Below are positions 12,554-46,236 of a stretch of 64,000 nucleotides of DNA, piece after piece. Both the position numbers and the translations under genes were made by a program. A model generated the notes under the pieces. The model was not told the DNA's origin and ran no database searches. It saw only the letters and a program-made list of their open reading frames with translations. The stretch lies in assembly GCA_038209965.1 (NCBI GenBank), contig JBBQXF010000003.1:25420-89419 (forward strand), read 5' to 3'. This DNA is from Cytophagales bacterium. GTDB taxonomy: Bacteria; Bacteroidota; Bacteroidia; Cytophagales; Thermoflexibacteraceae. Within the stretch, counting starts at the first letter, position 1. The number at the start of each line of letters is the position of its first letter.

Positions 12554-12602
12554 AAACGAAAGTTAGGCCATTCTAGGTGATTATGCCGATAGTCCAATCG
12601 AC

Positions 12603-27784: not shown

Positions 27785-27880
27785 ACGACTACCCAAGAAA
27801 TCTACAAGGCTTTCAAAAGCCTTGTAGATTTTTAAAATAAAACCTAAAACTTTCAATTTAATCACAAAGTATAAATTTCT

Positions 27881-28660: not shown

Positions 28661-28719
28661 ATCCTAATCTTAGAAATATTAAAATCTACTTGTTAAGAAT
28701 GTTCCAAACGTAAAATCTT

Positions 28720-29505: not shown

Positions 29506-29530
29506 ACCACAATTTTAACCCAAAATAAAC

Positions 29531-30229
29531 ATGAAAAAGACAAGTTTAATTATTGTATTTCTGTTGGTGTTGTCTGTTGGCTATGCCCAAACCAACGACT
29601 GTAACGGCTATTTTGCCTACAAACAAGGTACTAAGTTTGAGCTGACTTGTTACGACAAAAAAGACAAAGTCACAACTCTGCTCAAGTATGAGGTTAAGAA
29701 AAATGTATCTTCAGCAAGCAAGACAGAGTTTTTCTTTTACAACGAAACCATGGACGACAAAGGCAAACTGCTTGTCAAAGGCGACTACAGCGTAGAATGT
29801 AAGGATGGGCAAGTGTTTGCCGACGTGCGCAACATCAGTTCGTTTGCAGCCCCCAAAACGGCGGATGTGGAAATGAGTTTTACCGGTGATAAAATTACCT
29901 ACCCCCACAACCTAAGTCAGGGGCAAAAGCTTGCCGATGCCAATATGCAAGTCAAGGGGGGGATGGCAAATGTGGGTTTGAACCTTATCAATATAAACAT
30001 GTCTTTTACCAATCGCAAGGTAGAGGGCTTTATGCCGATAACTACACCGGCGGGTACGTTTGAGTGTGTCAAAATATCTTATGACAGTGACGTAAAAAGT
30101 GGTTTGTTCAAATTTAACGGCAAGACTACCGAATACCTTGCCAAAGGCATTGGGATAGTAAAATCAGAATCTTTTGACAAAAAAGGCGTAAAATCGTCCT
30201 CCATCATATTGACCAAATTAGAAAAATAA
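29531..30229 (+). CDS. Hypothetical secreted protein.
   Basis: Signal MKKTSLIIVFLLVLSVGYAQ. 232 aa. Low GC. Confidence 0.55.
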   Translation: MKKTSLIIVFLLVLSVGYAQTNDCNGYFAYKQGTKFELTCYDKKDKVTTLLKYEVKKNVSSASKTEFFFYNETMDDKGKLLVKGDYSVECKDGQVFADVRNISSFAAPKTADVEMSFTGDKITYPHNLSQGQKLADANMQVKGGMANVGLNLININMSFTNRKVEGFMPITTPAGTFECVKISYDSDVKSGLFKFNGKTTEYLAKGIGIVKSESFDKKGVKSSSIILTKLEK

Positions 30230-31236
30230 TGAAAAAGATCATCATCATTTTATGTTTGTGTGGGATTGGGTTTGGGCAAATAGCTGCCCAAACCTATACT
30301 TTCAACGCCAAGGCAACTTTTAAAATTCAAACAGATGAAGGGTCGTTTAGCTCTTACTTTTACCTCAATACCAAAAATGGTAATGCAGGACATGATGCTC
30401 AAGCCTTTCAAATGATGACTAAGGAAAATGTTGACGGGTACATTTTTTCGCTGGTTGAATATGGAAAAAAAATGTCGCAATACATGAATGTCGAAGGCAG
30501 AAAATATGTGGTAGAGCAGCCTCTATCCAGAGAAAATTATACTGCAGACATGTTTTGGAAAGAATTCAAAAAAACCGGAAAACGCCAAACTTTCGGGAAA
30601 TATGCGGCCCAAGAATATACAGGGACAAGCGAAGACAGAAAAATAGCCATCTGGCTAGGCGAAAAAACCTACAACTTGGATGGTAAGCTACAAGGCGATA
30701 TTGTAGGGCATTATGGTGTTGGTTATTTGTTCAAACCTTCTGAAAATGCCTATTACCTGATTGTTCACTTCAAAGATGAAGATGCCCAAGTAACACTTTT
30801 GGATATAATACCTTTCTCCAAATCTGTTGCGTTGAATGGCTATGAGAAAATGAAAGTGCCAGTAATGCCAGATACCATGCTCCAAGGCAACGGCAATCCC
30901 AATCAAAACGAAGAGCCACCCAACAATAAAGGGCAGGGATATGGAATGGAAAATTTGAAATGCTCAAGCACGTACGGAGCGGCCATTTCAGCTTTGGAGC
31001 AGTCCCTATCAAGTTACAAAAATTTGCTCAATAATCCTCAGGTTGGTGCAGAACAGAAGGCGGAATTTCGTAAAATGCTTACTTGCCTTGAAGGCAAACT
31101 GCCTTTGATGAAGCTTGCCAAGGAGGAAGCTCTGCGAGCCGAGCAGCGCTATTCCAATAATCAGGAAAAATTGATGGAGGAATGCCAAAAGATTGAAGAG
31201 AAATTAGAAAAAAATACGGCTCATCTATGTCCCTAG
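30229..31236 (+). CDS. Hypothetical secreted protein with a C-terminal coiled coil.
   Basis: Signal MKKIIIILCLCGIGFGQIAAQ. 335 aa. The start overlaps the previous stop (ATGA). Confidence 0.55.
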   Translation: MKKIIIILCLCGIGFGQIAAQTYTFNAKATFKIQTDEGSFSSYFYLNTKNGNAGHDAQAFQMMTKENVDGYIFSLVEYGKKMSQYMNVEGRKYVVEQPLSRENYTADMFWKEFKKTGKRQTFGKYAAQEYTGTSEDRKIAIWLGEKTYNLDGKLQGDIVGHYGVGYLFKPSENAYYLIVHFKDEDAQVTLLDIIPFSKSVALNGYEKMKVPVMPDTMLQGNGNPNQNEEPPNNKGQGYGMENLKCSSTYGAAISALEQSLSSYKNLLNNPQVGAEQKAEFRKMLTCLEGKLPLMKLAKEEALRAEQRYSNNQEKLMEECQKIEEKLEKNTAHLCP

Positions 31237-31505
31237 AGAAATAAACCTAGTTTTTGGTTGGGCAGGGTGAATGGGGCAATGCGCTGGATGTATGATAACA
31301 GTATTTTTGCTGATTGAAAATAAACGAGTTACTTGTTTCTACAATTCGTCGGCTTGGTGTAGGATCATTTATTGGGTGTTGTCATTTCTCGCCGAATAAG
31401 TAGAAAATAAACCTCTCAGTGGCTTCTCGACGACAAAATAAATTTGACCAATTGATTACCAAAGCTTAAAATATTAGTTTTTTTGCACCCAAGGCCACCT
31501 TCATT

Positions 31506-32474
31506 TTATCGGCCAGTGGTAGCTTTTACCTCTTCACCGTCCACTATTTTCTTGTCCACAATGAAAAAGGGCCGTTGCTTGGCCTGAAAAAATATCCGCA
31601 GCACGTATTCACCGATTACGCCGAGCGAAATGAGTTGTACCCCGCTGAACAACGAGACCACGATGAGCAAAGTGGTGTAGCCCTCGGGCACAGTATCAAA
31701 GAAATACTTGACCGTCAAGGTATAAATAATGAGGATCAGGGAAAGCAACATAATGAACCAACCCATGCCCGTGATCAGCTTGATGGGCACTTCACTAAAG
31801 TTGAAAATCCCGTTGTAGGCCAGTTTGAGCAGCATTTTAAACGAGTATTTGGGTTGGCCGGCCTGCCGTTTGGCGCGCTCATAGGCCAGCCCCACTTGTT
31901 TAAACCCGATCCACGTGCGCATCCCCCGGATGTAGCGGCTCTCCTCGGGCATTTGGTTGAGGATGTCCACCACCCGGCGGCTCATCAGGCAAAAGTCGCC
32001 ACTATCCAAGGGGATGTCGATATAGGAGATCGATTTGAGGATCCGATAAAACAAGTAATAACCGATTTTTTTTGGCCAGCTTTCCTTCCGTTTTTGCCGC
32101 ACGGCGTACACCACGTCATAACCTTCCCCCAGTTTGGCGTAAAAATCGGGGAGCAGTTCGGGGGGATCTTGCAGGTCACCATCCAGCACCATGATGGCCT
32201 CCGTGCCCCGGGCCGAGGCCAACCCGGCGGTCAGGGCCAACTGGTGGCCGTGGTTGCGCGACAAGAAAACACAGTGGTAGCGGGCATCGCTCAGGGCCAG
32301 GGCCGCCATGAGCTGGGCGGTGTTGTCCCGGCTGCCGTCGTTGACCAGCACGACCTCGATCCGTTTGGTCGATTGCGCCATGACCAGACTTAGGCGCGCG
32401 ATGAGCAGGGAAAACATTTGGCTTTCGTTGTAGAGTGGAATGACAAATGAGATTTCGGGCAGTGGCTGGGGCAT
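31506..32474 (-). CDS. GT2-family polyprenyl-phosphate glycosyltransferase (ArnC/GtrB/DPM1-like) with C-terminal TM helices.
   Basis: ISFVIPLYNE…VNDGSRDNT…DGDLQDPPE (DxD). C-terminal TM segments. Confidence 0.85.
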   Translation of the reverse strand: MPQPLPEISFVIPLYNESQMFSLLIARLSLVMAQSTKRIEVVLVNDGSRDNTAQLMAALALSDARYHCVFLSRNHGHQLALTAGLASARGTEAIMVLDGDLQDPPELLPDFYAKLGEGYDVVYAVRQKRKESWPKKIGYYLFYRILKSISYIDIPLDSGDFCLMSRRVVDILNQMPEESRYIRGMRTWIGFKQVGLAYERAKRQAGQPKYSFKMLLKLAYNGIFNFSEVPIKLITGMGWFIMLLSLILIIYTLTVKYFFDTVPEGYTTLLIVVSLFSGVQLISLGVIGEYVLRIFFQAKQRPFFIVDKKIVDGEEVKATTGR

Positions 32475-32586
32475 CTTCAACGGATTGGCGTGCACAAATA
32501 ACCGAAAAAAGTGGGACTTTTGTCAACGTAAACCCTTGGTCATTGTGGAAATAGTCGTTTATCATTTTTTATTACTTGGCGGACTC

Positions 32587-34575
32587 ATGATCGCTTGTAT
32601 GGGCGTGGGCCATGCCCTGCGAGCCATAGCCCTCCGGCAATTCCCAGTTTTGGGCTACGACCAGTGGCTTTTTAGCGGTTTAGTGGGGGCCGTAGCCTTG
32701 GCCGCTGCCACAGCACTCTGGCACACGCACGGGGTTACTATTTTCGGCCTTACGTTACCCATGGCGGCTTTTTTTTGGTACGAACTCAGGTGCTCGACTC
32801 AGGTGCTTCCGGCGGGAGAGGAGCTTTCTCCACCTCTCCCGCCGCCAATTCGGGGGCGGGTGGTTGCGCTATGGCCGGGCTTAGTGGGGGGCGTGTTCGT
32901 GTATGCGTTTTGCGCGTGGGGCTTTGTGCGCCCGGGGGCCTATGTACCCTATAATATCCCCGATCCTCAGGCCACTTTCCACCACGACCACGTGTATAGT
33001 TCCCGTATCGCCTATTTTAGCCAGCTATCTGGTCAGGAAAGCGATGTCTTTCTGCTAAATCTCCTAGATCCTGCCTACCGAGGCACCAAGCCCTACCACT
33101 ACCTTGAACTCTGGCTTACTAATACTGTGGCTGGGGTCACGGGGCATCGCCAAGTGGCTATCCTTTATCTGGTGGTTTATCCCTTTTTCTATTGGCTTGG
33201 TTTGGTGGGGATTTTGGCTGTATGGTCGGCTGGACGCACGCTGGCGCCTGGCTGGCTGCTGGTGGGCAGCATCGCATTTTTGTTTGTGGGTGGGTTTACC
33301 TTTGAATTTTATAAATCGGTGCGTTTCTTATCGCTTCTTTCGGTGTACAAGCACCCTCTCATTAGTGGCCTACCTAAACTGGGGCAAGTGTACGTCTTTT
33401 TGCTAGCAGGGCTGTTACTTGTCTGGCGCGGTCGCTGGATCGAAGGCCTACTCACACTGCTCATGCTCGGCACCACCTATTTAGTAGTGTTTCCGGGGGT
33501 GGCATTGGCTGCTGGCGCGGCTACCGTCGGGGCTTGGCTTTTTCGTATAGTGCCCCGTCCCCAAGCCATTCGCGGTATGATTTACGCTAGTTTTTTTGGC
33601 TTGAGCGTAGCCGCGTTTTATCATTTTTTCGACGTCTCTACGGTGGGGCGAGAGGGTGCCAGCACCCGCGAAATCGCTGGCTTGCTCCAAGGGGTGGTGG
33701 ATCCTGAAACCCTCCGTCTTCGGTTTAATATCATCGTAGGCGGCCTGCTTCAGGTCGGCATTGTGTATGCTCCATACCTCTTGCTCATTGTCGTTTTCTG
33801 GCCCCAATGGTGGGTGCAGGTAGGATTACCGTCCCGCGTCAGCCTCATTTTCGCTTTTATCTTACTCTCGGCTGGTACGGTCGCTTGGGCCGTGTTCTAC
33901 AAACAGCTAAATTCTTTGCAACTTTTTTATAACCTTGGCATTCCACTGGCCAATGTTCTGCTCATTGCCCTAGCCGGCTGGCTCATCCGGCAGCCTATTA
34001 CTTGGCGGAGCTGGTTTGCCGGCTTGATATTTAGCCTCTCGTCGCTGCTGCTTTTTTGGGATAGTCTATACGTTTACCCACTAAAATTTTATCCTCCGGT
34101 CTATTCCGATGCCTATCTTGAGCGAATAGATACCTACCTCCACACCCAGCTTGGCACTTGGCTGGCTGGGGCCTCTCTCCGAGCCGAAACGGCCTTCCCT
34201 AATATCTTCGAAAAATACGTGACCATTTATACCAACGGCAGCTACTTGCCCTATCTCGGTAATGGCGGCGCGGTAGCCATCAGCCTCAACGATGGCGAGA
34301 TTCCCCTGAGCACCGATCCGCTCGTGCGGGAGCGCGAAAAGCAGGCCATTGGCATGGGCTTGTTCTATCGTTGGCTGGCCCGCGAAAAGGCGGTGGGCAC
34401 TTATCGCGATTTGCCGACGAGCCAATTGGCCTTTATCCAGCATTTCAAGCTCCGGTTCCTGATCCTTTCGGCGGGGGTGGCAGTGCCCCCCAATCTCCAG
34501 CCCTTATTGGAAAGTCGATTTGTGGATCCGCTATCGGGCGAACAGTTTGTCATTTTTAGACCTGTAAAACAATGA
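32587..34575 (+). CDS. Large polytopic membrane protein (probable GT-C-like glycosyltransferase partner of the GT2) with a soluble C-terminal domain.
   Basis: >12 predicted TM helices, divergent from the GT2 gene. About 660 aa. The start is uncertain (ATG 32587 chosen). Confidence 0.55.
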   Translation: MIACMGVGHALRAIALRQFPVLGYDQWLFSGLVGAVALAAATALWHTHGVTIFGLTLPMAAFFWYELRCSTQVLPAGEELSPPLPPPIRGRVVALWPGLVGGVFVYAFCAWGFVRPGAYVPYNIPDPQATFHHDHVYSSRIAYFSQLSGQESDVFLLNLLDPAYRGTKPYHYLELWLTNTVAGVTGHRQVAILYLVVYPFFYWLGLVGILAVWSAGRTLAPGWLLVGSIAFLFVGGFTFEFYKSVRFLSLLSVYKHPLISGLPKLGQVYVFLLAGLLLVWRGRWIEGLLTLLMLGTTYLVVFPGVALAAGAATVGAWLFRIVPRPQAIRGMIYASFFGLSVAAFYHFFDVSTVGREGASTREIAGLLQGVVDPETLRLRFNIIVGGLLQVGIVYAPYLLLIVVFWPQWWVQVGLPSRVSLIFAFILLSAGTVAWAVFYKQLNSLQLFYNLGIPLANVLLIALAGWLIRQPITWRSWFAGLIFSLSSLLLFWDSLYVYPLKFYPPVYSDAYLERIDTYLHTQLGTWLAGASLRAETAFPNIFEKYVTIYTNGSYLPYLGNGGAVAISLNDGEIPLSTDPLVREREKQAIGMGLFYRWLAREKAVGTYRDLPTSQLAFIQHFKLRFLILSAGVAVPPNLQPLLESRFVDPLSGEQFVIFRPVKQ

Positions 34576-34578
34576 ACA

Positions 34579-36621
34579 ATGGGCGTTGCCACGTATTATT
34601 TTTTGTTGCTGCTGGGATTGATCACTGCCAGCGGCATCATTGGCCACGGCCTGAGGCGCATGGTGTGGGGGCGGCCAATGCCCCGCAACTACACCCAACT
34701 GCTGTTTGATGGCCTGACCGGGGCTTTGGGGCTGGCCACCGTTGCGGCACTTTGGTGGACCCAATCGATAACCGTCCACTTGACCGTTCTGCTCATTGCA
34801 GCTTTTTTTCTGGTGGAGGTTTGGTCGATAAAGGGTGCGTCCCGCCGGGCCGAACCTGCCCCGGAGTCCTTGCCCTGGCGATCCGCTTGGCCCGTCTTGG
34901 TGGGGGCACTCTTGATTTTTGGCTTCTGTGCGTGGGGGTTTGTGCGCCCCGGGGCGATTGTCCAGTTCAACATCCCCGATGCCCAGGCCACGGTCAACCA
35001 CGATCATATTTACAGTGCGCGGATTGCTTACTTTAGCCAACTTTCCGGCCAAGAGTCCGATGTATTTTTGCTCAACCTGCTCGATCCGGCCTACGGCGGA
35101 GTCAAGCCCTACCATTACCTCGAGTTGTGGCTCACCAATGCCGTGGCCGGGATCACGGGCACCAATCAAGTCGTGGTGCTGTACTTGGTCATTTATCCAT
35201 TTTTCTATTGGCTGGCTTTGGTCGGCATCCTCGCCCTGTGGGAGGGTGCTGGCAGTCGGCCCTCAGGTTGGCGGTGGCCAATCGCTCTGCTGTTGCTTTT
35301 TGTGGGCGGTTTCACGTTTGAATTGTACAAAGAGATTGGCTTTTTGGCCCTGCTCAGCACCTACAAACACGCGGTCATGAGTGGGCTGGCCAAATTGGCG
35401 ACCATTTACGTCTTTTTGCTGGCCTTTTTGCGCTTGGTGCAGCAACGCCAGATCCTGTTTGCCTTGTTGACTTTGCTGTTGTTGGGCACGGCTTCATCGG
35501 TGGTTTTCCCCGCCATCGCTTTGGCCACTTGCGCCGCCGCCTTGGGGGCCGTTGGGTTTGGGTGGCTTCCCCGATCGGTGGCTTGGCGGGCGCTTGGCTA
35601 TGCCCTGACTTTTGGCCTGGCCGTGGCAGCATTCTATCATTTTTTTGATACGTCAACCGTGGGCCGGGAGGGAGCCAGTGCCAAAAGTGTGGGTAGTTTA
35701 ATCATGAACTTGGTTGATTATAGCACCCTGCGCACCCGTTTCAACATCATTGTGGGGACAATGATCCAGTTGGCGATTGTCTACGCCCCGTTTCTGTTGG
35801 TAGTCCTCCTGTTTTGGTCGGATTGGTGGCGCGAAGTGGCCAAACCGTACTTGGGCCTACTGCTTTTTGTCCTGCTCCTCTTGCTTTCGGGCACGGTGGC
35901 TTGGACGGTATTTTACAAGCAGCTCAACTCGTCCCAATTGTTCTATAACTTGGCCGTTCCACTGTGCAATGTACTGGTTTTTGCTCTGGCGGTTTGGGTG
36001 ATCCAGCGGCGCACCACTTGGCGGAGTTGGGTGGCCGGCGGGGTGTTTGTAGCCTCGGCCGTCCTGCTTTTCTGGGAAAGCCTATCCGAATACCCCCTCA
36101 AGAACACTCCGGTCAATTATTCCGATGCTTACTTGCAGCAAGTGGAAACCTACCTTGGCACGCAGCCCGGCGGCTGGCTGGCCGGGGCTTCGCTGAAAGC
36201 TGGGTCGGCCTACTACGACGTGTTCCAAAAATACGTGACCATTTATACTAACGGCAGCTACTTGCCCTATCTCGGTAATGGCGGCGCGGTGGCCATCAGC
36301 CTCAACGATGGCGAGATTCCCCTGAGCACCGATCCGCTCGTGCGGGAGCGCGAAAAGCAGGCCATTGGCATGGGCTTGTTCTATCGTTGGCTGGCCCGCG
36401 AAAAGGCGGCGGGCACTTATCGCGATTTGCCGACGAGCCAATTGGCCTTTATCCAGCATTTCAAGCTCCGGTTCCTGATCCTTTCGGCGGGGGTGGCAGT
36501 GCCAACGCCCATTCTGCCGCTGGTCAAGGCCCAGTTTGCCGATTCGATTTCGGGTGAGCAGTTCCTGATCCTCGATCTGGTCAAGCCAGCGGGTTCCAAC
36601 ACAGTCGGCCCACCAAAATAA
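34579..36621 (+). CDS. Tandem paralog of the preceding membrane protein.
   Basis: Alignable throughout (…FVRPGA(Y/I)V…NIPD(P/A)QAT…HDH(V/I)YS(S/A)RIAYFSQLSGQESDVFLLNLLDPAY…). The last ~110 codons are nearly identical at the nucleotide level to 34200-34500. Confidence 0.6.
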   Translation: MGVATYYFLLLLGLITASGIIGHGLRRMVWGRPMPRNYTQLLFDGLTGALGLATVAALWWTQSITVHLTVLLIAAFFLVEVWSIKGASRRAEPAPESLPWRSAWPVLVGALLIFGFCAWGFVRPGAIVQFNIPDAQATVNHDHIYSARIAYFSQLSGQESDVFLLNLLDPAYGGVKPYHYLELWLTNAVAGITGTNQVVVLYLVIYPFFYWLALVGILALWEGAGSRPSGWRWPIALLLLFVGGFTFELYKEIGFLALLSTYKHAVMSGLAKLATIYVFLLAFLRLVQQRQILFALLTLLLLGTASSVVFPAIALATCAAALGAVGFGWLPRSVAWRALGYALTFGLAVAAFYHFFDTSTVGREGASAKSVGSLIMNLVDYSTLRTRFNIIVGTMIQLAIVYAPFLLVVLLFWSDWWREVAKPYLGLLLFVLLLLLSGTVAWTVFYKQLNSSQLFYNLAVPLCNVLVFALAVWVIQRRTTWRSWVAGGVFVASAVLLFWESLSEYPLKNTPVNYSDAYLQQVETYLGTQPGGWLAGASLKAGSAYYDVFQKYVTIYTNGSYLPYLGNGGAVAISLNDGEIPLSTDPLVREREKQAIGMGLFYRWLAREKAAGTYRDLPTSQLAFIQHFKLRFLILSAGVAVPTPILPLVKAQFADSISGEQFLILDLVKPAGSNTVGPPK

Positions 36622-36879
36622 TCGACTGTCGTTTCCCCGTCTCGATAAGTGGCTTTGCGGCTGGCCACAAACCGTTCCCCAACTGGTCTGCCCGGCCTAA
36701 TTCTTTTTTGCGGCCAAGTCGGGCAACTTGCCGCTTGATGCTGTTGGCCGCTTTGGTCGATCCGCAATCAAAAATTGAGTGGAAGTCAAGATCGAGGGTA
36801 AAATATTGAAAATCAGGTCATCTGCCGTTGTCATTTTGGCTTGGCGCGATTTGTTACAAGTACGTTGGGCTTGCCAAAT

Positions 36880-37075
36880 AAAGGGTAGCCCCACTTGTTT
36901 AAACCCGATCCATGTGCGCATCCCCCGGATGTAGCGGCTCGCCTCGGGCATTTGGTTGAGAATGTCCACCACCCGGCGGCTCATCAGGCAAAAGTCGCCA
37001 CTATCCAAGGGAATGTCTATATAGGAGATCGATTTGAGGATCCGATAAAACAAGTAATAACCGATTTTTTTCCGC
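36880..37075 (-). pseudogene. ~200-bp fragment duplicating an internal part of the GT2 gene (matches 31880-32080).
   Basis: Near-identical DNA (…cccacttgtttaaacccgatcca(c/t)gtgcgcatcccccggatgtagcggct…ccgataaaacaagtaataaccgattttttt). ORF 36697..37053 begins with a GT2 peptide (…YRILKSISYIDIPLDSGDFCLMSRRVVDILNQMPE…). Confidence 0.75.
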
Positions 37076-37111
37076 GACGGGACTCAGCCCAAAACCGGGA
37101 CTTCAAACAAC

Positions 37112-39297
37112 TTGGGCGAACTCAACATTGGGCGAAAAGTGAACATGCCCGGCCCCATGTTTTTCTCGCTCTGGCCCGGCCAGATTGCCAAAATCATCCC
37201 CGGCCACCACTTGCGCTCAAACCAGTACCTGCTCGTGCGCGTGTATGACGAAACCGAAGCCAAGAAGAACTGGGCCAAAGCGGTGGTCAAGACCAAAAAT
37301 ATCGGCGATGGTGGCGACGAAGAAATAATCACCGCCGAAACCCCCGATCTGATCACGGGCCGCCAATTGATCATCAAGGGAACCACCGTTTCGTTTTACA
37401 TCCCGCCCACGGGCGTGGAAATTGTCCGCGATGAAAACGGCAACTACGTGCGCGAAGCGGTTACTTTGGAACGACTGGAATACTGTATTTTGTTGAACGA
37501 AAACGGCAACAAACGGTATTTGCAGGGGCCAGCGGTCGTTTTTCCCGAGCCAACCGAAGAGTTTATCACCCGCAACGGCAACCGAAAATTCCGGGCCATT
37601 GAGCTCAATGAGATCAGTGGGCTGTACATCAAGGTCATTGCGCCCTACGTCGAGAATGGCCAGCACTACGAAGAAGGCGAAGAACTGTTCATCACTGGCA
37701 AAGATCACAAAATTTACTTTCCCCGCGCGGAACACGCCATTATCAAATATGGTGAACAAGAAGTGTACTACGCGGTGGCCATTCCGGCGGGCGAGGGCCG
37801 CTATGTGCTCAACCGCAAAACTGGCGAAGTAACGCTGAAAAAAGGCCCGGCCATGTTTTTGCCCGATCCCCGGGAGGCAGTCATCGTCCGGCGGCTGCTC
37901 GATGCCCGCCAAGTTGAGCTGTGGTTTCCTGGCAACCGGGAAGCCTTGGACTACAATTTGCGGCTCAAAGAACTGTTCCATCTAAGCCAAAAAGATGAAT
38001 TTATTTTGGCCAAAGACGTAGATGAAGCCCTCCAAAGCGAAAAAGTAAAGGAAAACTCGCGCAAACGGTCGATGACCTCGGTGCCCAGTGGGTTCACCGG
38101 CGATGAATTTAACCGCGCCGAACAGCAGGCCCCGCCCCGCACGGTCACGCTGTACACAAATACGAAGGGGCGGTCACCATCAATTTATGGACGGGTTACG
38201 CGATTTTGGTGGTGAGCAAATCGGGCAATCGCAAGGTTATCGTGGGGCCGCAAACGTACTTGGCCGATTACGATGAGAATTTGCAGATGACCGAACTATC
38301 GACCGGCACGCCCAAAACTGAAGCGAACCTATTGCGGACGGTTTATCTCAAGGTATTGCACAACAAGATTTCCGACATAGTAAAAGCTGAATCGGCCGAT
38401 TTTTGTCAAGTAAACATTCATGTGTCCTACCGGGTCAATTTTGAGGGTGAGCCAGAAAAATGGTTCAATGTGGAAAATTATGTCAAGTTCTTGACCGATC
38501 ACTTGCGATCGGTAATCCGCAATGCCGTCAAGCGGTACAAGATCATGGATTTTTATGCCAATGGAATCGGGATCATCCGCGATACCGTCTTGGGCATTGC
38601 CGTGGACAAGAGCAAGCGCGGCGGGCGGCGGTTTGAAGAAAACGGGATGCACATTTATGACGTGGAGGTGTTTGACATCAAGCTGGGCGATAACGGAATT
38701 GAAAATATGCTGATCAGTGCCGAACAGGACGTGATCCGACAGACGCTGGCCATTGCGGGCGAACGGCGCAAACTGGAACTGACCGAAGAGATCGAGCACG
38801 TGGCCCGCAAGGTGAGCGAGGCCAAGTCGCAGACCAAACAACAGGCACTGGAGTTGCAAAAAACCGAAATTGGAAAAACGCTGGAGAGCCAACTGGCTGC
38901 GCTGGAAGCCGAAATCTTGACCCGCCAGCGCGATCTGGAAGCCAAACTTTCCGGGCAGGAACAGATCGCCAAGATCAGCACCGCCGAACTGGGGATGGAG
39001 AAAGAACGGCGGGCCTTTGCCTTGGAGGTGGAACAGCAGCAGATGAGCCAATATTTGGCCCGGGCTCAAGCCGAGGTAAATGGGGTAGTGGCCAAGGCCG
39101 GGGCCATTTCACCCGACCTGATCGCCGCGCTGCAAGCCTTTAGCGATCGGGCACTGGCCGAGCGCGTGGCCACTTCGATGGCTCCGTTGTCCATTTTGGG
39201 GGGTGGCAGCGTCGCCGAAGTATTTGCCCAGATGCTCAAGGGCACGGTGCTGGGCAACGTGCTGAACGGTGGCATCGAGGATGTGCAGGTAGAATAA
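37112..39297 (+). pseudogene. Major vault protein (MVP) homolog with a single-base frameshift (A-run) near 38155-38165. It would encode ~730 aa if read through.
   Basis: N-terminal vault repeats (…IPAGEGRYVLNRKTGEVTLKKGP… ; …KVIVGPQTYLADYDENLQMTELSTGTPK…). Shoulder/SPFH-like region (…FEGEPEKWFNVENYVKFLTDHLRSVIRNAV…). Long cap-helix coiled coil with ISTAELGMEKERRAFALEVEQQQ… and C-terminal …MAPLSILGGG. These parallel human MVP segment by segment. Confidence 0.7.
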
Positions 39298-39379
39298 CTG
39301 CCGCACTGGAAAAGCCTAAAAAACCTGCTGGCCGCGCGCCCAGCAGGTTTTTTTAGGCTGCCTTCCAAGTTCGTCCGCC

Positions 39380-42300
39380 TTACTCTTTCACAAAGCGGTA
39401 CACGAGTTTTTCGGTGCCCAAGTCCACTGTCAATACATATACACCTTGGTTCAATGGGCCAATGTCCAGCCCTTTTTCCCAAAACTGTCCCCCTTTTTCT
39501 TGGCTGGACTGCCGGATGATTTTGCCGAACACATCAGTAATCTGGATTGAGATTTGGCCAGTAAAAGGATGGTTCAGCATCAGATTCAGCACCGATTTTG
39601 CCGGGTTGGGGAACCCGTGCAGGTAGCCAATTGGGGCTTGGGCCGATCCACCGCGCCGGAAATGCAGCACAAAACGGTTGGCTTCAAGGCCCCGGTTGGC
39701 TTGGAAAGGGTATTCGGCGGTGGTCAGATTGTGGAAAGCCCCGGTGGTTTTGTCCTCCAAATAAATGGCGGTGCCAGCGGCAAAAAACTTCATTTCGGCA
39801 ATGCGGAAGTACTGCTGGCCACTTCGCACCGCTTTGAAATAAACCGGCAAGCTAGTATTTTCAGTCAGCGGGGGCAGGGCGTTGTAGGCGGTGGGCCGTT
39901 CGCCGACCCGGGTGAGCAGGTCTGGGGCATCGGCCGAGTTATAAAACGGACGCAGGATGTCTTCCCGTTCGTCCCAACCATTGGTGGCCCGGGGCATAAA
40001 ATAGACCACTGTTTGATCGACGGTGCTGTTTCCCGCCTCGAATTTGACAATGCCCGAGCAACCAAGGTTTTCGGCTTCTTCGGGCCGGTAGAATTGGGGC
40101 TTCTGATAGGCAGTGGGCCGCACCGAGTTGTCAAAGCTTAGGTTGCCGCTGCTGCCCGGGGTGCGTGCCCGGACCAAAAAGCCTTGGCCCTGGGCCAGAT
40201 CTTTGCCGCCGTTGATGCCGATGCCCCCGGGGATATTGGCCGGGAAGTAGGCCCAAGCCCCCGAGAAGCGGCCCGTGGCGATCCGCCGCAGAATGGTCCG
40301 ATCCACGACCGTACTGTTGCTGCCCAAGTTATACACCGCGTCCCAATCGATGGGCGAGGGATACGGGTTGCCGATCAGGTTCCAGCCCGACTGGGGAGCG
40401 TTGCCCCGGGTGATTGGGCCCACGGAAAGGTTGCCGTTGGTCAGTATGCCTACTGATCGGAAGGTAAAACCCCCAGGAATGTTTACGCAATAACCCCGGC
40501 CCGTGACGTAGGGCTCGCCAGAGGTTATTCCCCGCCAACCCGCTTGGCCCGACGCGGGAGCGCCGCCCTCAAATACTTGGTTTTCTCCCTCTACATATCT
40601 AAAGGCATTGGGAAAATTGGCGATGGTGTAGCTGGGGTTTTGCCAAAAATAGGGGTCACCGGGATTATCGAAAATAATGCCTCCGCCCAAGACATCAGCC
40701 CCGATAGTCCCGCCCAAAACAGGCCGGGAAACATAGGTGTAGCCTTGTCCGGCAATCCTTTCGGGATAAGCCTCCACAAACCGCTGGACCAGCACTTGGC
40801 CATCAACCACATTGGTATTGCGGTTGATCACCATTGCAGTAAAATTTTGGGTAGAAAGCAGGGTAAGGTTGTCTTGGGTGATGAAATTGTTCTGTTCCAG
40901 ATCAAGCAAACGGCGAACCCGGATGTTGAAAGAGGTGGCGGCCACCAATGGATTGCCGGGATTCTGAACCAGCAAATAGTTGAAAGTCAACTGATTGTCC
41001 AAGAACTCGTGGTTGATATAATTCGATACGGACGGGGGAATGCCCACTGTGCAGTCATTCCGGGGGACAAACGTCACAGTAGCGGTGCCGTTGCCGGGGT
41101 CGAATTGGGTCGATTGGCCAGTGACGGCAAAATCCCGTCCCACCGTCAAGCGGCTATCGTTGCCCATGGTAAACCGGCAATTGTTCAGGTAGATGTTACA
41201 GGCCACTGCCGTGGTCAAACTGGCGGGCAAGGTGGCGGTCACCCGGTCGATCAAGATGTTTTGCGGAGTAGTGGGCACCGAAAAAGACAGCACCCCACCG
41301 CCGCTGCGCGACTGGGGTGTCCAACCGTTGGGGTCGTTCCAGGTGCCACCTTGGCGCAGCATCCGGCGCATTTCCACCGCCCCAATGTCGGGCACACAGG
41401 TGCGGTGAGCAACCAGATAATCCTGTTCATAGTCGTTAAAAGGGATCGGGTTGACCCCAAAGTCGCTGGGTAAACCGCCCCGATCCACGAGCGGGCTGTC
41501 CGGCAGGGGGACGTAGGGAGTGTCCTCGAGCGTGCCAATGGGGCTGTAGGGCGAGGCTGGGCCCAGCAACTGGGGGTCTTGGTTGAAAAGGCACCCGGCA
41601 TTGCAAACGGTGCCCGGTGGGCAGGCAGCGTCCTCGATCAAATTATGGTATAATTGGGCCCCCGATCCGACCAGTTGATAGCTGTTGAGCACGGCATTGG
41701 CCCGGTTGCCCCAAAACAAGGTGTTGATGGTTTGCAAACTGGTGTTGGACAGGTACAGCCCCCCGCCGGCACTGGCACCGGGTGCAGTGTTGTCCAAGAT
41801 CGAGCAATGGCGAAGTTCCAGCACGCCCAACTGGAAAGCGGAGCTGTTTAGGTAAGCCACTCCTCCACCAAACTGCGCGGTATTGTTGCTGAATATGGTG
41901 TTGATCAGGGAGACCTTCTTAGTACTGTTGGTGCCGGTTATGGCCATGCCACCGCCGTTGCGAATGGCGTGGTTGCCCTCGAACAGGCTAAAACCGAAGG
42001 GCGTTTCCCGGTCTTGGATGAACACGCCGCCACCGTCGCGCTGGGCGGTATTGTTCCGGTAAATGGCTCCAAAAAATATTGACATCTGCTCGATCAGGCC
42101 GTTGCTCACGTACATTCCGCCGCCATCTTCACTGGCTTGGTTATTTTCTACCAGCAGCCGGTTCAATCCCAACCCGGTGGCTGGCCCGGGAGTGGGCAGT
42201 GGCACCCTGCCCGTGGACAGGCGCGAGCCGGCATCATAATACACTCCGCCTCCCAAGCGGGCCCGGTTGCCCCGGATCACGCCATTGACCAACCCGATGG

Positions 42301-43042
42301 TGGAGAAGGTCTGGTAGATGGCCCCGCCCAAGCCGCCTTCGTTGCCCATCGGACCACCGCCAATCGCTTGGTTGTTCAAAAAGGTGCAATTGATCAAATT
42401 GACTTGGGGGCAACTTTGGGCAAAAAACCCGCCGCCGCCCGAAGTGGCCACGCAATTGGCAATGGTACAGTTGACCATGTCAAAGCTGGCATTGACGGCA
42501 AAGACGCCGCCTCCCCAGTAAAGATTGAAAATGGGCAAGATGGGATCGGGCCCCGGAACCCGGTTTTCATTGCCATCCCTGACTTCCACTTGATCCAACA
42601 GGGTGGTGGTAATCCCGTTATTGAGGGTGTTGCGAATATCGATCACCGTATAATTGTTGTCGCTGTTGTTGCCGGGGATGCCCAAATCCCCGCTGAGAAT
42701 AGTGGGCCCCAAAGCACCGCTCCGCTGGAACAGGTAGTTTTCGGTACCGCCAAAGCCCCCATAGATCATGGTTCCGTTGACGATAAAAAATGACAGGCTG
42801 CGGTTATTGGAGGTTCGGTAAGTCCCACCGGCCATGAATAGGCTGTCACCAACTTGGGCATTGCCAAGGGCAACCTCCAAGCTGTTATAAGCACCAGCCC
42901 AAGTAGCTCCGCCGCCGCCGACTGGCGCAGCGGCATTGACAAAAACGGTGCGCTGGGCAAGGCTCACCGACAGCCCAAAAACCAATAAAAAACAGCAAAA
43001 GAGAAAAACCTTTGCCAGTACGTGAGATAAAGTAAATATCAT
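39380..43042 (-). CDS. Giant (1220 aa) secreted right-handed beta-helix (pectate-lyase-fold) repeat protein with a T9SS C-terminal sorting domain.
   Basis: Signal MIFTLSHVLAKVFLFCCFLLVFGLSVSLAQ. Many NxxG/beta-helix repeats (…GGGMAITG…IFSNNTAQFGGGV…). C-terminal …GVYVLTVDLGTEKLVYRFVKE, typical of Por/T9SS CTD. Confidence 0.8.
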   Translation of the reverse strand: MIFTLSHVLAKVFLFCCFLLVFGLSVSLAQRTVFVNAAAPVGGGGATWAGAYNSLEVALGNAQVGDSLFMAGGTYRTSNNRSLSFFIVNGTMIYGGFGGTENYLFQRSGALGPTILSGDLGIPGNNSDNNYTVIDIRNTLNNGITTTLLDQVEVRDGNENRVPGPDPILPIFNLYWGGGVFAVNASFDMVNCTIANCVATSGGGGFFAQSCPQVNLINCTFLNNQAIGGGPMGNEGGLGGAIYQTFSTIGLVNGVIRGNRARLGGGVYYDAGSRLSTGRVPLPTPGPATGLGLNRLLVENNQASEDGGGMYVSNGLIEQMSIFFGAIYRNNTAQRDGGGVFIQDRETPFGFSLFEGNHAIRNGGGMAITGTNSTKKVSLINTIFSNNTAQFGGGVAYLNSSAFQLGVLELRHCSILDNTAPGASAGGGLYLSNTSLQTINTLFWGNRANAVLNSYQLVGSGAQLYHNLIEDAACPPGTVCNAGCLFNQDPQLLGPASPYSPIGTLEDTPYVPLPDSPLVDRGGLPSDFGVNPIPFNDYEQDYLVAHRTCVPDIGAVEMRRMLRQGGTWNDPNGWTPQSRSGGGVLSFSVPTTPQNILIDRVTATLPASLTTAVACNIYLNNCRFTMGNDSRLTVGRDFAVTGQSTQFDPGNGTATVTFVPRNDCTVGIPPSVSNYINHEFLDNQLTFNYLLVQNPGNPLVAATSFNIRVRRLLDLEQNNFITQDNLTLLSTQNFTAMVINRNTNVVDGQVLVQRFVEAYPERIAGQGYTYVSRPVLGGTIGADVLGGGIIFDNPGDPYFWQNPSYTIANFPNAFRYVEGENQVFEGGAPASGQAGWRGITSGEPYVTGRGYCVNIPGGFTFRSVGILTNGNLSVGPITRGNAPQSGWNLIGNPYPSPIDWDAVYNLGSNSTVVDRTILRRIATGRFSGAWAYFPANIPGGIGINGGKDLAQGQGFLVRARTPGSSGNLSFDNSVRPTAYQKPQFYRPEEAENLGCSGIVKFEAGNSTVDQTVVYFMPRATNGWDEREDILRPFYNSADAPDLLTRVGERPTAYNALPPLTENTSLPVYFKAVRSGQQYFRIAEMKFFAAGTAIYLEDKTTGAFHNLTTAEYPFQANRGLEANRFVLHFRRGGSAQAPIGYLHGFPNPAKSVLNLMLNHPFTGQISIQITDVFGKIIRQSSQEKGGQFWEKGLDIGPLNQGVYVLTVDLGTEKLVYRFVKE

Positions 43043-43227
43043 CTTTTAATGAGGTTAGTGATCAATGTATGCGTAGTATTTCAAGTGCAGTAATTGATTA
43101 AGCCTGAATTGTTTACAAAGCATCCTTAAATTTGGGCCAAACAAAGATAAGCACAAAGTGAGCAATCGGAAAACTTGAGAAAAATTTTCCGATTACTCGT
43201 TTTTGTGTCCTTGTGAGTAGTGATATT

Positions 43228-45666
43228 TTATTCGCTTTTCAACACCAGCTTGCCCTTTTTGGATTGCTCGATCTCGGCCCGATCGGTCAGTTCGGGGCGG
43301 GCCACTCCTTGGGCAAAAGCTTGGCCCTGATCACCGTAGTGGGGCGAGCGGAAATAGCCCGATTGCCCAGTGGGGTTGATGCTGGTGGCTTTTTCGGGTT
43401 GGCCAAAATCGATGATCCGCCGCAGGGCCGGGCCATAGGTAACGCCGTAATACCCAGTGGAATCCAGCTTGAAATCGAGGTTGTTGAGGGTTTCGCGGCC
43501 CCCGGGCACGGCAAACGGGCCCACGTTGAAGAATTGGCCCACCAAAGGCAAAGTGCCCAGTGGGTGCTTATGGGTGAGGGTGTGGACCCGCTGCCACTGC
43601 CATTGTGCCTGATCTTGGCCCAACTGAGCGCCCAAATCGGCCACGGCTTGGTCAAATGCCCGGGCCAAAATAACAGTGCGCGTTTCTTTTTCCGGGGTTT
43701 TTTGGTTGTCCCACCACGGCGAAGCCTCATTGCGCAGCAGTGTGTTCAGGTTGCGCTTGAGTGAGTGGTTGCTGGTAAAAGACTGAAAACCAGCTATCCC
43801 CAGTTCATCGCTCATCAGGCTTTGGCAAGTCCGGTACAAAAACTTGTAGTAAATCGTTGGCGCAGTATCGGTCAGTCCGTGCGATCCGTCCCACTGTTGC
43901 AAAGTGGCCAAGGCGGCTTGGTTGCTTGTCCCCTTGCCAATGGTCGGGGCCAAGATCGGGAGCAGATCGCGCAGCAAATCCCGGGTATTGGTATTGGTTT
44001 GGTCGTTGATCACTTGGCCCATTTTGGCGGCGGTCCAGTCGGTGCGATCGTTGTAGAGCAACTCCACAATGCGTTTGGCCCGATCACCGGGCACGTAGTA
44101 GCCGGGCACCAGGCCGCCCGCCCGTTTGTCGGGTTGGTTGTTGGCCGAGTAAATCACCCCGTTCGCGGGGTTCAGGATCTGGGGATTGTCGCGGAAATCA
44201 TGCCAGCCCAGCACTTCGTCCAGCCCCGAAGCCCCATCCAATAGCAGGGACGGATCCACGTGCGGGGGACGTTTGGGCAGTTTGGCAGCGGCCCACCAGG
44301 CGATGTTGCCCGCCGTGTCCGCCCACATGATGTTGAGGCCGGGCGCGTGGAGCAAACTCACCGCCTTGGCCGCTTCTGCCGCGTTGCGGGCGTGGGCCAG
44401 ATCGTAAAATACTTGACCGGAGCGGCTCGGGAACTGGAACAAAGTCCACCACAAGGCCACGGGCGCGTTGAACGGTTTCATCCCTTTGCCCACGTCTTCC
44501 AGCAGCACCCCGTGGCGCGATTTGCGCACCACCAATTTCACATCTGGGGCATCCTTTACCTTGATCACTTCCGCCCGCAGTTGCAGATCTTCCCAGTGGT
44601 CTTGGTACCAGACTTGGTTGGGGTTTTGCGGGTTAAGTTTTTCGCGGTAAAAATCCACATCATCGTTCTCAAACATGGTCAGGCCCCAGCCCCCGTGTGC
44701 ATTGTGGCCCAACACCGCGACCGGAACCCCGCCAATAAAATTGCCATAGAAGCTAAAGCCGGGACATACCAAGTGAGCTTCGTAAAATACCGACGGTTGG
44801 CTAAAGGCAATGTGGGTGTCATTGCTCAAGATCGGCTTGCCCGACGCGGTTTTGCGCCCGCTGATCACCCAGCCATTGGAGCCGTGAAAGGGCTTGACCG
44901 GGAAGAGCGATTGCTCCCAAGTGCGCAGTTGGTTGCCGAGGGCCAGCAGGTTTTCGGCGGCCACGTCCGGTTTGTGGTGGGCCAGCCCGGGCGGTAGACT
45001 GTCCACCGGGATCTTGGGTTGGCCCGCTGGCCAGTTGGCCCCCAAGTCTTTGAGATAAGCAGCCCCATATTTTTCCTTGATCAAAGTGAGCACTGGCTCG
45101 GCGTTAAAGGCTTCGGCAAAACTGAATGCCATGTAGCCCGAGATCATTTCGGCATCTTCCACCGTGTATTCAGTGGGGGCAATGCCCAAAATGTCGAATT
45201 CTACGGGCAGTTTTCCCGCGTTGATGTAGGCATTCACGCCCTTGACATAAGCGTACATGGCCCGCGCATGAGGGGCATCGGGTGTTTTGGCATACACGGA
45301 GTCGATCGTGAGGCGGGCATATTGCCGAAAGCCCAAGGTGCGAAAAAACTTGTCCACCTCCAAGGTGCGGTCACCAAACACTTCCGAGAGCCGGCCATCG
45401 GCCAAACGGCGGGCCGCTTCCATCTGGAACAGCCGATCTTGGGCGTGGACATAGCCTAGGGCGTAGTAAACGTCCGGCTCATTTTGGCCATAAATGTGGG
45501 GGATGCCATATTGATCATACAGCACCTCCACCTCGGCCCGCAAACCTGGCAATTTGACCTCGGCAGTGTAGTCCACTTGTTTGGATTCCAAGAAAAAGTA
45601 ACCACCAACAACCGCCAACAATATCAGCAGTATTAAGGCATAAAAAAATACTTTCAGAAAGCGCAT
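43228..45666 (-). CDS. Penicillin acylase / N-acyl-homoserine-lactone acylase family (Ntn hydrolase).
   Basis: …YDQYGIPHIYGQNEPDVYYALGYVHAQDRLFQME…; …GSNGWVISGRKTASGKPILSNDTHI… (nucleophile Ser after GSNxW). Start taken at MRFLKVFF. Confidence 0.85.
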   Translation of the reverse strand: MRFLKVFFYALILLILLAVVGGYFFLESKQVDYTAEVKLPGLRAEVEVLYDQYGIPHIYGQNEPDVYYALGYVHAQDRLFQMEAARRLADGRLSEVFGDRTLEVDKFFRTLGFRQYARLTIDSVYAKTPDAPHARAMYAYVKGVNAYINAGKLPVEFDILGIAPTEYTVEDAEMISGYMAFSFAEAFNAEPVLTLIKEKYGAAYLKDLGANWPAGQPKIPVDSLPPGLAHHKPDVAAENLLALGNQLRTWEQSLFPVKPFHGSNGWVISGRKTASGKPILSNDTHIAFSQPSVFYEAHLVCPGFSFYGNFIGGVPVAVLGHNAHGGWGLTMFENDDVDFYREKLNPQNPNQVWYQDHWEDLQLRAEVIKVKDAPDVKLVVRKSRHGVLLEDVGKGMKPFNAPVALWWTLFQFPSRSGQVFYDLAHARNAAEAAKAVSLLHAPGLNIMWADTAGNIAWWAAAKLPKRPPHVDPSLLLDGASGLDEVLGWHDFRDNPQILNPANGVIYSANNQPDKRAGGLVPGYYVPGDRAKRIVELLYNDRTDWTAAKMGQVINDQTNTNTRDLLRDLLPILAPTIGKGTSNQAALATLQQWDGSHGLTDTAPTIYYKFLYRTCQSLMSDELGIAGFQSFTSNHSLKRNLNTLLRNEASPWWDNQKTPEKETRTVILARAFDQAVADLGAQLGQDQAQWQWQRVHTLTHKHPLGTLPLVGQFFNVGPFAVPGGRETLNNLDFKLDSTGYYGVTYGPALRRIIDFGQPEKATSINPTGQSGYFRSPHYGDQGQAFAQGVARPELTDRAEIEQSKKGKLVLKSE

Positions 45667-46236
45667 AAGATTGAAGCAGGTGTTGCGTAGAAAAGTGGCC
45701 AAAAATAGTGTAGAATGGGGAACTATCACCGCTGGGCACTGAAAACGGGTGAGGGCGAGGATTGGTCGGAAAAACGGGCGCAGTTGGCAGTAAGCCGCCA
45801 AACTGGGATTGAGGCGGTGGCCAGTTGCTTGGCCCCACAAATAGCGATCGGTAGCAGAGCTTACACAAACCATTTAAAATCCCGGGGTGAATTACTATCG
45901 TTGATCATGGCAGTTAAGTGCCGGTACATCAAACGGCTATTTTTAGTTGTCCACCTGTTTTGGCCACAACCAAAAGCTCGAGGGAATGCGATGATGATGG
46001 ACAAATAGCCAATTCCAGCGCCAAACCCGGAAAGGACGGCATCCAATCGGCATTTTTTTGGTATCGCGACTACCTTATTGGCTATCATGGTGATGGCCGT
46101 CCAGACTTTTTTGGGTGACCCAAGCGATGACCACAAATATTGGCCAAGGCTCAATCCAGCGCATTATTTTTGGCTTTTTTCTTACCTTTAGGGGCAAACT
46201 CGCATCTCATCGGGTAATGCCCTTAATCATAAAGCC

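Follow-up and report, generated by a model that had tools for sequence, protein, structure and literature searches.

Members of a bacterial family related to the major vault protein (MVP) have been described by Daly et al. 2013 (PMC3762200) and Sokolskyi 2019 (10.1101/872010), with a literature going back to 2012-2013; among them are Microscilla marina A1ZGE7, Saprospira grandis H6L4P8 and Flexibacter litoralis I4AHY9, and such proteins are known from Cytophagales, Saprospirales, Myxococcota and others. Assembly of the bacterial homologues into a vault cage has been the subject of docking predictions only (Daly 2013, PMC3762200), and no experimental report of cage formation by any bacterial MVP was found in the literature. 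The JGI annotation labels the family 'major vault protein'. At least 455 species-representative genomes and 639 clusters at 50% identity carry it; a first-pass annotation of the locus described below, made from the DNA alone, had called such homologues rare and patchily distributed in bacteria, which is right as to patchiness and an overstatement as to rarity. Between phyla the proteins are 57-60% identical, and the sequences suggest that the genes may have been transferred across phyla.

The eukaryotic MVP (rat, human and rabbit; PDB 4V60, 4HL8, 9BW5 and 9Z4W) has the same order of modules as the bacterial protein, i.e., small beta repeats, a shoulder and a long cap helix, and builds a 78-mer cage of 39-fold half-shells, whereas the bacterial likeness considered here is one of sequence and predicted fold. 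The two share just ~17-18% identity, and the bacterial protein differs in having no recognisable Pfam Vault repeat (PF01505), in a helical insert and disordered linker at residues 360-445 and in a shorter C-terminal tail. In the shoulder of the human vault, a pocket for ADP-ribose and nucleotides has recently been seen (PDB 9MXJ and 9MXV). A further parallel may be struck with the SPFH/Band-7 proteins (HflK/C, flotillin, prohibitin, stomatin and QmcA), in whose complexes a long helix after the SPFH domain builds the wall of a dome. The bacterial shoulder shares the SPFH fold (Foldseek E 1e-6 to 1e-4) and also precedes a long helix, but the bacterial MVP-like protein lacks a membrane anchor and stays under the Pfam cut-off for Band_7 (20.8 vs 23.6 bits), whereas the SPFH/Band-7 proteins lack its ~500-residue N-terminal repeat array.

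The locus presented here, in a 64-kb stretch of DNA analysed as a whole (the window), is very probably a recently inactivated copy, i.e., a pseudogene, of such an MVP-like gene from Cytophagales-type Bacteroidota. Its features, and those of its surroundings, are as follows:

31506-32495, minus strand: intact GT2 glycosyltransferase gene, 5 kb upstream (Pfam Glycos_transf_2, 96 bits)
31888-32072, no strand assigned: source copy of a 185-bp repeat, inside the GT2 gene (self-BLAST)
36622-36886, no strand assigned: upstream part, still present, of the intergenic DNA that ancestrally separated a membrane-protein gene from the MVP gene (collinear with 340-606 of the orthologous contig L001, 98.7%)
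36887-37071, antisense to the MVP reading direction: 185-bp patch in place of the ancestral promoter region and codons 1-82, a direct duplicate of the GT2 interior
37072-38155, plus strand: upstream remnant of the MVP-like pseudogene, ancestral codons 83-443 (tblastn 98% against P0001)
37112-38215, plus strand, frame 2: ORF1 (started at ATG 37145 in the NCBI record)
38153-38161, plus strand: frameshift site, where TAC AAC AAA of the intact alleles reads TAC-ACAAA (one A lost adjoining 38156)
38156-39297, plus strand: downstream remnant of the pseudogene, ancestral codons 444-823 and stop (tblastn 99%)
38206-39297, plus strand, frame 1: ORF2 (started at GTG 38212 in the NCBI record, 361 aa)
39313-39359, no strand assigned: palindrome with T/A runs, in the gap where the MVP remnant and the T9SS-tailed gene converge (inverted self-match)
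39380-43042, minus strand: T9SS-tailed gene, convergent with the MVP remnant

Taken together, ORF1 and ORF2 line up in order with residues 83-823 of P0001, an intact orthologue of 823 aa, at 99% identity; in tblastn its residues 83-448 fall on 37073-38170 (98%) and residues 444-823 on 38155-39294 (99%). Going by these alignments, the two ORFs are the halves of one ancestral gene, and the proposal of the first-pass annotation that they form a single MVP-like gene holds at the coordinates that it gave for them. Intact 823-aa alleles with 99% identity to the window copy come from two metagenomes (P0001 and P0281, the latter encoded on contig L087); the allele of L001 is intact, and the window DNA, starting at 37072, matches L001 with 98.9% identity. 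The ancestral gene is an orthologue of the described bacterial family: with the Microscilla marina protein (P0056) it shares 61% identity along 99% of its length, and with that of Thermoflexibacter ruber, its best match among GTDB species representatives, 82%, and it has the length (~825 aa) and the Pfam architecture (Vault_3 followed by MVP_shoulder) of that family. Its product was a soluble 823-aa protein, still intact in the 99%-identical strains, in which some eight or nine vault repeats, each a small beta-sandwich, are followed by the SPFH-like shoulder, a cap helix of ~137 residues and a short C-terminal tail. Against this background the window copy is broken by a 5' truncation and a frameshift, whereas all 80 of the loci inspected in other species hold one full-length ORF each (median 831 aa).

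The larger lesion, which is missing from the first-pass annotation, lies at the 5' end. MVP homology begins only at 37072/37073, i.e., at codon 83, and a tblastn search with P0001 found codons 1-82 nowhere in the 64-kb window. In their place stands the patch, 97.3% identical to 31888-32072, where L001 has a stretch of 367 bp (607-973) made up of 122 bp of intergenic DNA and codons 1-82. Both this stretch and the matching one of L087 are unrelated to the patch; it is here that the 5' part of the gene and the intergenic DNA ahead of it lie. The left junction of the patch shows 3 nt of microhomology (AGC), and on both flanks there is unique sequence collinear with L001. Since codons 1-82 are lost, the array of N-terminal vault repeats that the first-pass annotation had read here is incomplete: profile and structure comparisons bear out the array on P0001, but the window copy lacks the whole of repeat 1 and roughly half of repeat 2, and its upstream remnant runs from mid-repeat 2 onward through the helical insert and linker. 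Illegitimate recombination or templated repair would have swapped the 367 bp for a 185-bp copy of the GT2 interior, and for an uncultured lineage of Bacteroidota the patch may be seen as a clean case of illegitimate recombination associated with microhomology.

The second lesion is a deletion of 1 nt next to 38156, in codon 444, by which TAC AAC AAA became TACACAAA; the frame changes between ORF1 and ORF2 because of this missing base. Pairwise alignment with L001 has a single gap here (L001 2058, window 38155-38156), which is the sole coding indel across the 11.8 kb aligned with that contig. The first-pass annotation was thus right that one A is lost, but took it from an AAA run: in the intact alleles CTG TAC AAC AAA TAC GAA stands against CTGTACACAAATACGAA in the window, the missing A belonging to the AAC codon, and the un-deleted form of the site is TACAACAAATAC. 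Its placement of the deletion was off by 3 nt, and the peptide across the site, given there as ...TLYT-K-YEG..., is ...TLYNKYEGAV... once repaired. Five Logan assemblies, made from different SRA runs (L082-L086; SRR21228674, SRR26988077, SRR19962010, SRR26988067 and SRR26988069), carry exactly this deletion, which occurs on two haplotypes distinguished by positions 38163, 38349 and 39291. A deletion shared by five independent assemblies and two haplotypes is therefore inherited and no sequencing error. It shifts the frame; the order of the two lesions, like their mechanism, is our reconstruction. With both in place no full-length product is possible; an uninterrupted frame with a start codon and an upstream region, as in the orthologues, is absent from the window copy, and the ORFs as called by gene callers are remnants, probably without expression.

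The patterns of substitution might be read differently, viz., as those of a gene whose remnants are still in use, with ORF2 (GTG 38212, 361 aa) expressed by itself, from a start inside the gene, as a ring-forming SPFH-like protein, so that the split would be a shedding of domains and not the death of the gene. ORF2 does keep the shoulder and the cap helix whole, and in SPFH proteins these two are the module that oligomerises. Between the window and L001 the MVP codons show 12 synonymous to 5 nonsynonymous differences, a ratio resembling those of the functional neighbours (23:14 and 20:9), so that these counts give no clear signal of relaxed selection. Of the changes on the branch to the frameshifted clade, 8 are synonymous and 5 nonsynonymous, which are small numbers; the latter, with D224N at a position where at least 90% of sequences agree, lean towards inactivation. 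After the frameshift, the alleles that carry it vary at three sites, all of them synonymous when read in the original frame and none nonsynonymous, again small numbers; hence, either the inactivation is very recent or some constraint persists. Three sites are, however, too few to carry the latter (chance ~0.05), and 38163, one of the three, comes before any start that ORF2 could use. Moreover, the promoter region is deleted, the patch that replaced it is antisense coding DNA, and a scan for sigma-70 promoters and terminators, with a model ill-suited to Bacteroidota, found sites in the patch and around the locus no higher than the shuffled expectation. The short form occurs in 0 of the 80 homologous loci. 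Continued use of the remnants is thus unlikely. A broader version, in which ORF2 (38212-39297) would be expressed under purifying selection as an SPFH-like ring, and the intact and broken alleles, coexisting in nearly identical strains, would constitute a selected on/off polymorphism of a vault-like cage, e.g., under phage or predation pressure, also appears improbable.

That the gene is intact in the organism, with the frameshift and/or the 5' truncation being errors of sequencing or assembly, is less plausible still and has been largely refuted. Indels of one base are the textbook form of sequencing error, the 89-kb contig that holds the window is probably part of a metagenome-assembled genome, and an assembler could in principle be led astray by a repeat of 185 bp. 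Yet the deletion, besides recurring in different SRA runs and on both haplotypes, sits at an AA dinucleotide with no homopolymer run, and the 11.8 kb aligned are otherwise free of coding indels. As for the truncation, repeat collapse cannot give unique L001-collinear sequence on both sides of the patch, and the junction of GT2 with MVP recurs in L083, while the L082 contig ends inside the repeat. Of the two options left by the first-pass annotation, sequencing error or recent inactivation, the former thus falls away and a recent pseudogene stands.

The identity of the gene as a homologue of MVP, with repeats, shoulder and cap helix, is supported by several lines of comparison, for which the following features of the window copy are relevant:

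38224-38349, plus strand: last vault repeat, Vault_3 (PF17795), 30.7 bits against a cut-off of 28.8
38359-38691, plus strand: MVP shoulder domain (PF11978) with SPFH-like fold, 105-106 bits against a cut-off of 25, covering 2-118 of the 118 profile positions
38692-39102, plus strand: equivalent of the cap helix, one continuous helix of ~137 residues (P0001 623-759; DSSP on the AF2 model)

The Vault_3 match corresponds to residues 372-413 of the repaired protein, and of the Pfam repeat models PF01505, PF17794, PF17795 and PF17796 it is the only one to pass there, narrowly. PF01505 and Vault_2 were not detected by Pfam in the repaired protein and appear below threshold in a few distant family members (23.8 vs 27 bits); ORF1 by itself has no Pfam match, and an NCBIfam scan of the repaired protein found no family. 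Thus, of the two Pfam models that the first-pass annotation had pointed to, MVP_shoulder is found and Vault is not, Vault_3 appearing instead. The profile HMM alignment reaches through the cap helix of MVP to about residue 813. Matches in the PDB are to MVP chains only, with E-values falling from 1.6e-11 for the single sequence to 4e-25 for a 40-sequence profile and 2e-41 for a 127-sequence profile. An AF2 model of the intact P0001, built on the 127-sequence alignment, has a mean pLDDT of 83.8; it supersedes an earlier model from 40 close homologues, in which the N-terminal half was unusable (pLDDT 55). In Foldseek it matches the rabbit, human and rat vault chains at E 2e-34 to 1e-27 over ~900 columns. 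The MVP homology with shoulder and cap helix read by the first-pass annotation is borne out by these results. Because the full-length architecture matches that of eukaryotic MVP, copies of the intact protein would be expected to assemble side by side into a large dome or cage.

Such matches might in principle also be produced, via shoulder and coil alone, by a generic protein of the SPFH/Band-7 family or a TolA-like coiled-coil protein: the Pfam Vault model fails, Band_7 gives a weak match (20.8-21.5 bits vs a cut-off of 23.6), and coiled coils draw spurious similarity, as in the TolA claims of the preprint 10.1101/872010. Set against this, the N-terminal half alone matches structures of MVP repeats R1-R7, which have neither shoulder nor coil, both by the 127-sequence profile (PDB entry 3gf5, holding R1-R7 only, E 3.7e-4) and by fold (3GNF and 3GF5, Foldseek E 5e-15, TM 0.54). 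In the same Foldseek comparison flotillin, prohibitin and HflK/C reach E about 1e-6; the E-values of MVP chains are better than those of SPFH proteins by 25-28 orders of magnitude, and no transmembrane segment or signal peptide is predicted (maximum 19-residue Kyte-Doolittle mean 1.31). A generic protein of this kind is accordingly a very remote prospect. Programmed -1 ribosomal frameshifting or transcriptional slippage fusing ORF1 and ORF2 is scarcely credible, for although the ORFs overlap by 10 nt and a -1 shift would restore the ancestral reading, the intact alleles and 80/80 homologues need no frameshift, there is no X XXY YYZ slippery heptamer within 38155-38215, and codons 1-82 are missing anyway, together with the start codon and the promoter.

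Bacterial MVP homologues bear on the origin and function of vaults. The window copy is a recent pseudogene in an already described, experimentally uncharacterised family, and as a dead copy of a family annotated 'major vault protein' it adds little on either question. Its interest lies rather in being a natural knockout: among strains that are ~99% identical, some have the gene intact and others have it disrupted twice over, and the protein thus seems to be dispensable in this lineage. If the organisms or communities are accessible, near-isogenic natural contrasts are on offer.

All-against-all clustering of ORFs at 80 bacterial loci found no conserved operon partner, the top neighbour family being common to at most 7 of the 80, and synteny around the gene is not kept in Thermoflexibacter ruber. 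In the 64-kb window Rfam detected no family, vault RNA included, and ARAGORN no tRNA. In eukaryotes, vault RNA, vPARP/PARP4 and TEP1 are dispensable for cage formation. Membership of a defence system is not claimed, the PADLOC library having given just a match at the level of coiled coils (E 1e-3). A 73-bp tandem repeat at 12733-12877, considered as a tRNA pair, was rejected as acidic coding sequence. In L083 the GT2 gene is joined directly to MVP, with 32073-36886 absent, either by loop-out deletion between the 185-bp repeats or by assembly collapse. On the other side of the gene, the palindrome at 39313-39359 looks like a bidirectional terminator.

The locus is a recent, population-verified pseudogene of the already described major vault protein (MVP) family, and its two remnants are halves of one ancestral gene. 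Both ORFs claimed by the first-pass annotation are present, and a single base inserted near 38156 fuses them into one 728-aa reading frame. The features concerned are:

37112-38215, frame 2: ORF1, 367 aa (in the NCBI record called from an ATG at 37145, 356 aa)
38206-39297, frame 1: ORF2, 363 aa (in the NCBI record called from a GTG at 38212, 361 aa)
31506-32495, minus strand: intact GT2 glycosyltransferase gene (Glycos_transf_2, 96 bits)

As a database query the fused protein gave at least 6,895 significant matches, the best 120 of which show 58–99% identity across nearly its whole length; nearly all of these 120 are 815–850 aa long, and many are named 'major vault protein' by JGI. The top match, the intact orthologue P0001 (823 aa, 99% identical), exceeds the repaired protein of the window by about 95 residues. 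When searched against the whole window by tblastn, it matched two stretches only, residues 83-448 at 37073-38170 and residues 444-823 at 38155-39294, with no match anywhere in the 64 kb for its first 82 codons.

The 12.8-kb ENA metagenome contig that carries this orthologue (L001) was used as the intact reference. Its positions 1-606 align with window 36283-36889 and positions 974-12800 with 37072-48899 (98.9% identity), while the 367 bp between these blocks, made up of 122 bp at the end of the intergenic region and 245 bp at the start of the gene, give way in the window to a 185-bp stretch (36887-37071) with 97.3% identity to 31888-32072 in the interior of the GT2 gene. This larger lesion had been overlooked in the first-pass annotation. 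At the left junction of the patch 3 nt (AGC) are shared, along with patchy similarity, whereas the right one is blunt. In a second intact allele (P0281, on JGI contig L087) the 5′ region is undisrupted and arranged as in L001. The patch could have arisen in cis, by templated repair or a template switch that copied the GT2 gene at a distance of 5 kb, or by homology-facilitated illegitimate recombination with DNA from a donor resembling the Logan contig L083. Because the two 185-bp copies diverge by 2.7%, more than the 1.1% between the window and L001, a foreign donor would be mildly favoured. The smaller lesion is the third of three indels in the 11.8-kb alignment with L001, the other two being intergenic: the intact CTG TAC AAC AAA TAC has become CTGTACACAAATAC, with one A of the AAC codon lost beside 38156. 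Its earlier placement was thus slightly off, as the loss lies outside the AAA run and the restored peptide reads LYNKYEG.

An exact-sequence look-up placed both remnants on an 89,419-bp NCBI contig and the 361-aa product also on five Logan contigs from five separate runs (SRR21228674, SRR26988077, SRR19962010, SRR26988067 and SRR26988069), each of which has the same 1-nt deletion. The Logan contigs form two haplotypes, with differences at 38163, 38349, 39291 and more sites downstream; therefore, the shared deletion is older than their split within the lineage. The deletion is inherited, and the 5′ junction is likewise reproducible. One of them, L082, terminates within the 185-bp repeat at 37042, as is expected of short-read assembly reaching a repeat. 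In another, L083 (SRR26988077), window 30028-32072 is fused directly to 37072-39302 with the same GT2-MVP junction, and 32073-36886 is missing, i.e., the 5-kb segment between the repeats with the 5′ half of the GT2 gene and both membrane-protein genes. The repeat in L083 combines sequence from both window copies, as a crossover within the 50 bp common to them could produce; the contig represents either a real loop-out deletion between the repeats or an assembly collapse.

Between the window and L001, 12 codons of the remnant differ synonymously and 5 nonsynonymously, which is similar to its intact neighbours (23:14, 20:9 and 6:0). With changes polarised by the two intact alleles, the branch leading to the frameshifted clade has 8 synonymous and 5 nonsynonymous changes, the latter including D224N in a column that shows at least 90% conservation among 40 homologues; within the clade there are 3 synonymous and 0 nonsynonymous changes. 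All of these counts are too small to indicate relaxed or retained constraint. The three haplotype sites named are the sole variable remnant sites among frameshift-bearing alleles, all third-position and synonymous in the original frame, in numbers too small to interpret. Of the two options offered by the first-pass annotation, recent inactivation holds, by an inherited deletion together with the 5′ loss. A residual function of ORF2 has one weak hint in its favour and is unlikely; nothing functional is expected of the window copy, which has lost its promoter, its start codon and the stretch from repeat 1 to the middle of repeat 2, and whose frame is disrupted. Sequencing error, the other option, is contradicted by the recurrence across runs and haplotypes, and a sequencing or assembly artefact is essentially excluded. 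Programmed frameshifting was rejected.

The claimed homology to MVP is borne out by Pfam, PDB profile searches and Foldseek. MVP_shoulder was detected at 105 bits (cut-off 25), Vault_3 at 30.7 bits (cut-off 28.8) in the last repeat and Band_7 slightly under threshold, with zero Pfam matches for ORF1 by itself. The other family named for checking by the first-pass annotation, Vault (PF01505), was not detected in the window protein or close relatives and reaches 19.7–23.8 bits, below its cut-off of 27, in a few distant members. Searches of PDB sequences returned MVP chains exclusively (E = 1.6e-11 for the sequence alone, falling to 4e-25 and 2e-41 for profiles of 40 and 127 sequences, respectively), and the larger profile also matched 3gf5, which comprises repeats R1-R7 only (E = 3.7e-4). 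The AlphaFold2 model of the intact orthologue, built on the 127-sequence alignment, has a mean pLDDT of 83.8, with values above 90 across nearly all of the N-terminal half; Foldseek aligns it with rabbit, human and rat vault chains over about 900 columns (E = 2e-34 to 7e-27) and with R1-R7 crystal structures (E = 5e-15, TM 0.54), whereas SPFH proteins (flotillin, prohibitin, HflK/C and stomatin) are lower-ranked matches at only 1e-6. On this evidence, the ancestral protein had the full MVP layout of repeat array, SPFH-like shoulder and cap helix (about 137 residues). The alternative reading, a generic protein of SPFH or coiled-coil type, was rejected because of the repeats. The protein lacks a signal peptide, and no hydrophobic segment in it is strong enough to span a membrane. 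Judging by architecture alone, the intact protein would most likely assemble, like MVP, into a soluble oligomeric dome or cage by means of lateral contacts between repeats and a barrel of cap helices.

When one genome per species was scanned, MVP-like relatives turned up in at least 455 genomes, a lower bound given that only two peptide patterns were used. Their hosts include Bacteroidota, Riflebacteria, Sericytochromatia, Desulfobacterota, Myxococcota, Chloroflexota, Planctomycetota, Vulcanimicrobiota and others (57–68% identity), the nearest named relative being Thermoflexibacter ruber (82%). This relative and the Por_Secre_tail domain encoded downstream of the remnant assign the organism to Cytophagales-like Bacteroidota. 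When 1.84 billion 50%-identity representatives were searched exhaustively with HMMER, 1,274 clusters matched at E ≤ 1e-3 and 639 of them still did at E ≤ 1e-30. The family is patchy, as previously stated, but not very rare. All 80 best loci have a single full-length ORF (median 831 aa), and no neighbour gene family recurs in more than 7 of them; the MVP-like gene is a stand-alone gene, to which the disrupted window copy is the exception. Because the proteins of these loci are 57–60% identical between very distant phyla, their sequences suggest horizontal transfer. Daly et al. listed bacterial MVP-like sequences from Microscilla marina (A1ZGE7), Saprospira grandis (H6L4P8), Flexibacter litoralis, Plesiocystis and Corallococcus, and predicted MVP-like folding and docking for them (PMC3595041, PMC3762200); the Microscilla protein is 61% identical to that of the window. 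A 2019 preprint analysed the same bacterial groups and remarked on gliding hosts (10.1101/872010). In the present set, filamentous or gliding bacteria account for many of the hosts. The literature search found no experimental study of a bacterial family member, and experiments are warranted for the family, on an intact member rather than the window copy.

The surroundings of the remnant comprise:

27881-31236, plus strand: four consecutive genes (232-335 aa) with lipoprotein-like N-termini
32440-34575 and 34579-36621, plus strand: upstream tandem paralogues for polytopic membrane proteins of about 700 aa, divergent from the adjoining GT2 gene
39313-39359: near-perfect palindrome with flanking A and T runs, between the convergent MVP remnant and T9SS-tailed gene
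downstream of the remnant, convergent: T9SS-tailed 1,220-aa protein with a Por_Secre_tail domain, and beyond it penicillin amidase and a molybdopterin oxidoreductase subunit

The membrane proteins have zero Pfam matches and may be GT-C-like glycosyltransferases acting with the GT2 enzyme. Their genes are 82% identical in DNA at the 3′ ends (33860-34487 and 35879-36503) and only 69% in the middle regions, which suggests gene conversion or differential constraint. The palindrome at 39313-39359, not reported by a consensus terminator scan, is probably a bidirectional intrinsic terminator. Among the four genes at 27881-31236, some encode a signal peptide followed by Cys, the first two resemble paralogues and one has a weak sub-threshold SpvB match. 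No Rfam family reached its gathering score in window 1-64000, and the 64 kb contain no tRNA genes; a 73-bp tandem duplication (12733-12877, minus strand, 81% identity) was ruled out as a tRNA gene pair, being Asp/Glu-rich coding sequence. Further repeats are a 49-bp direct repeat whose copies, 15501-15549 and 17170-17218, lie 1.7 kb from each other (98% identity), and palindromes at 20525-20559 and 27798-27831, each about 35 bp long.
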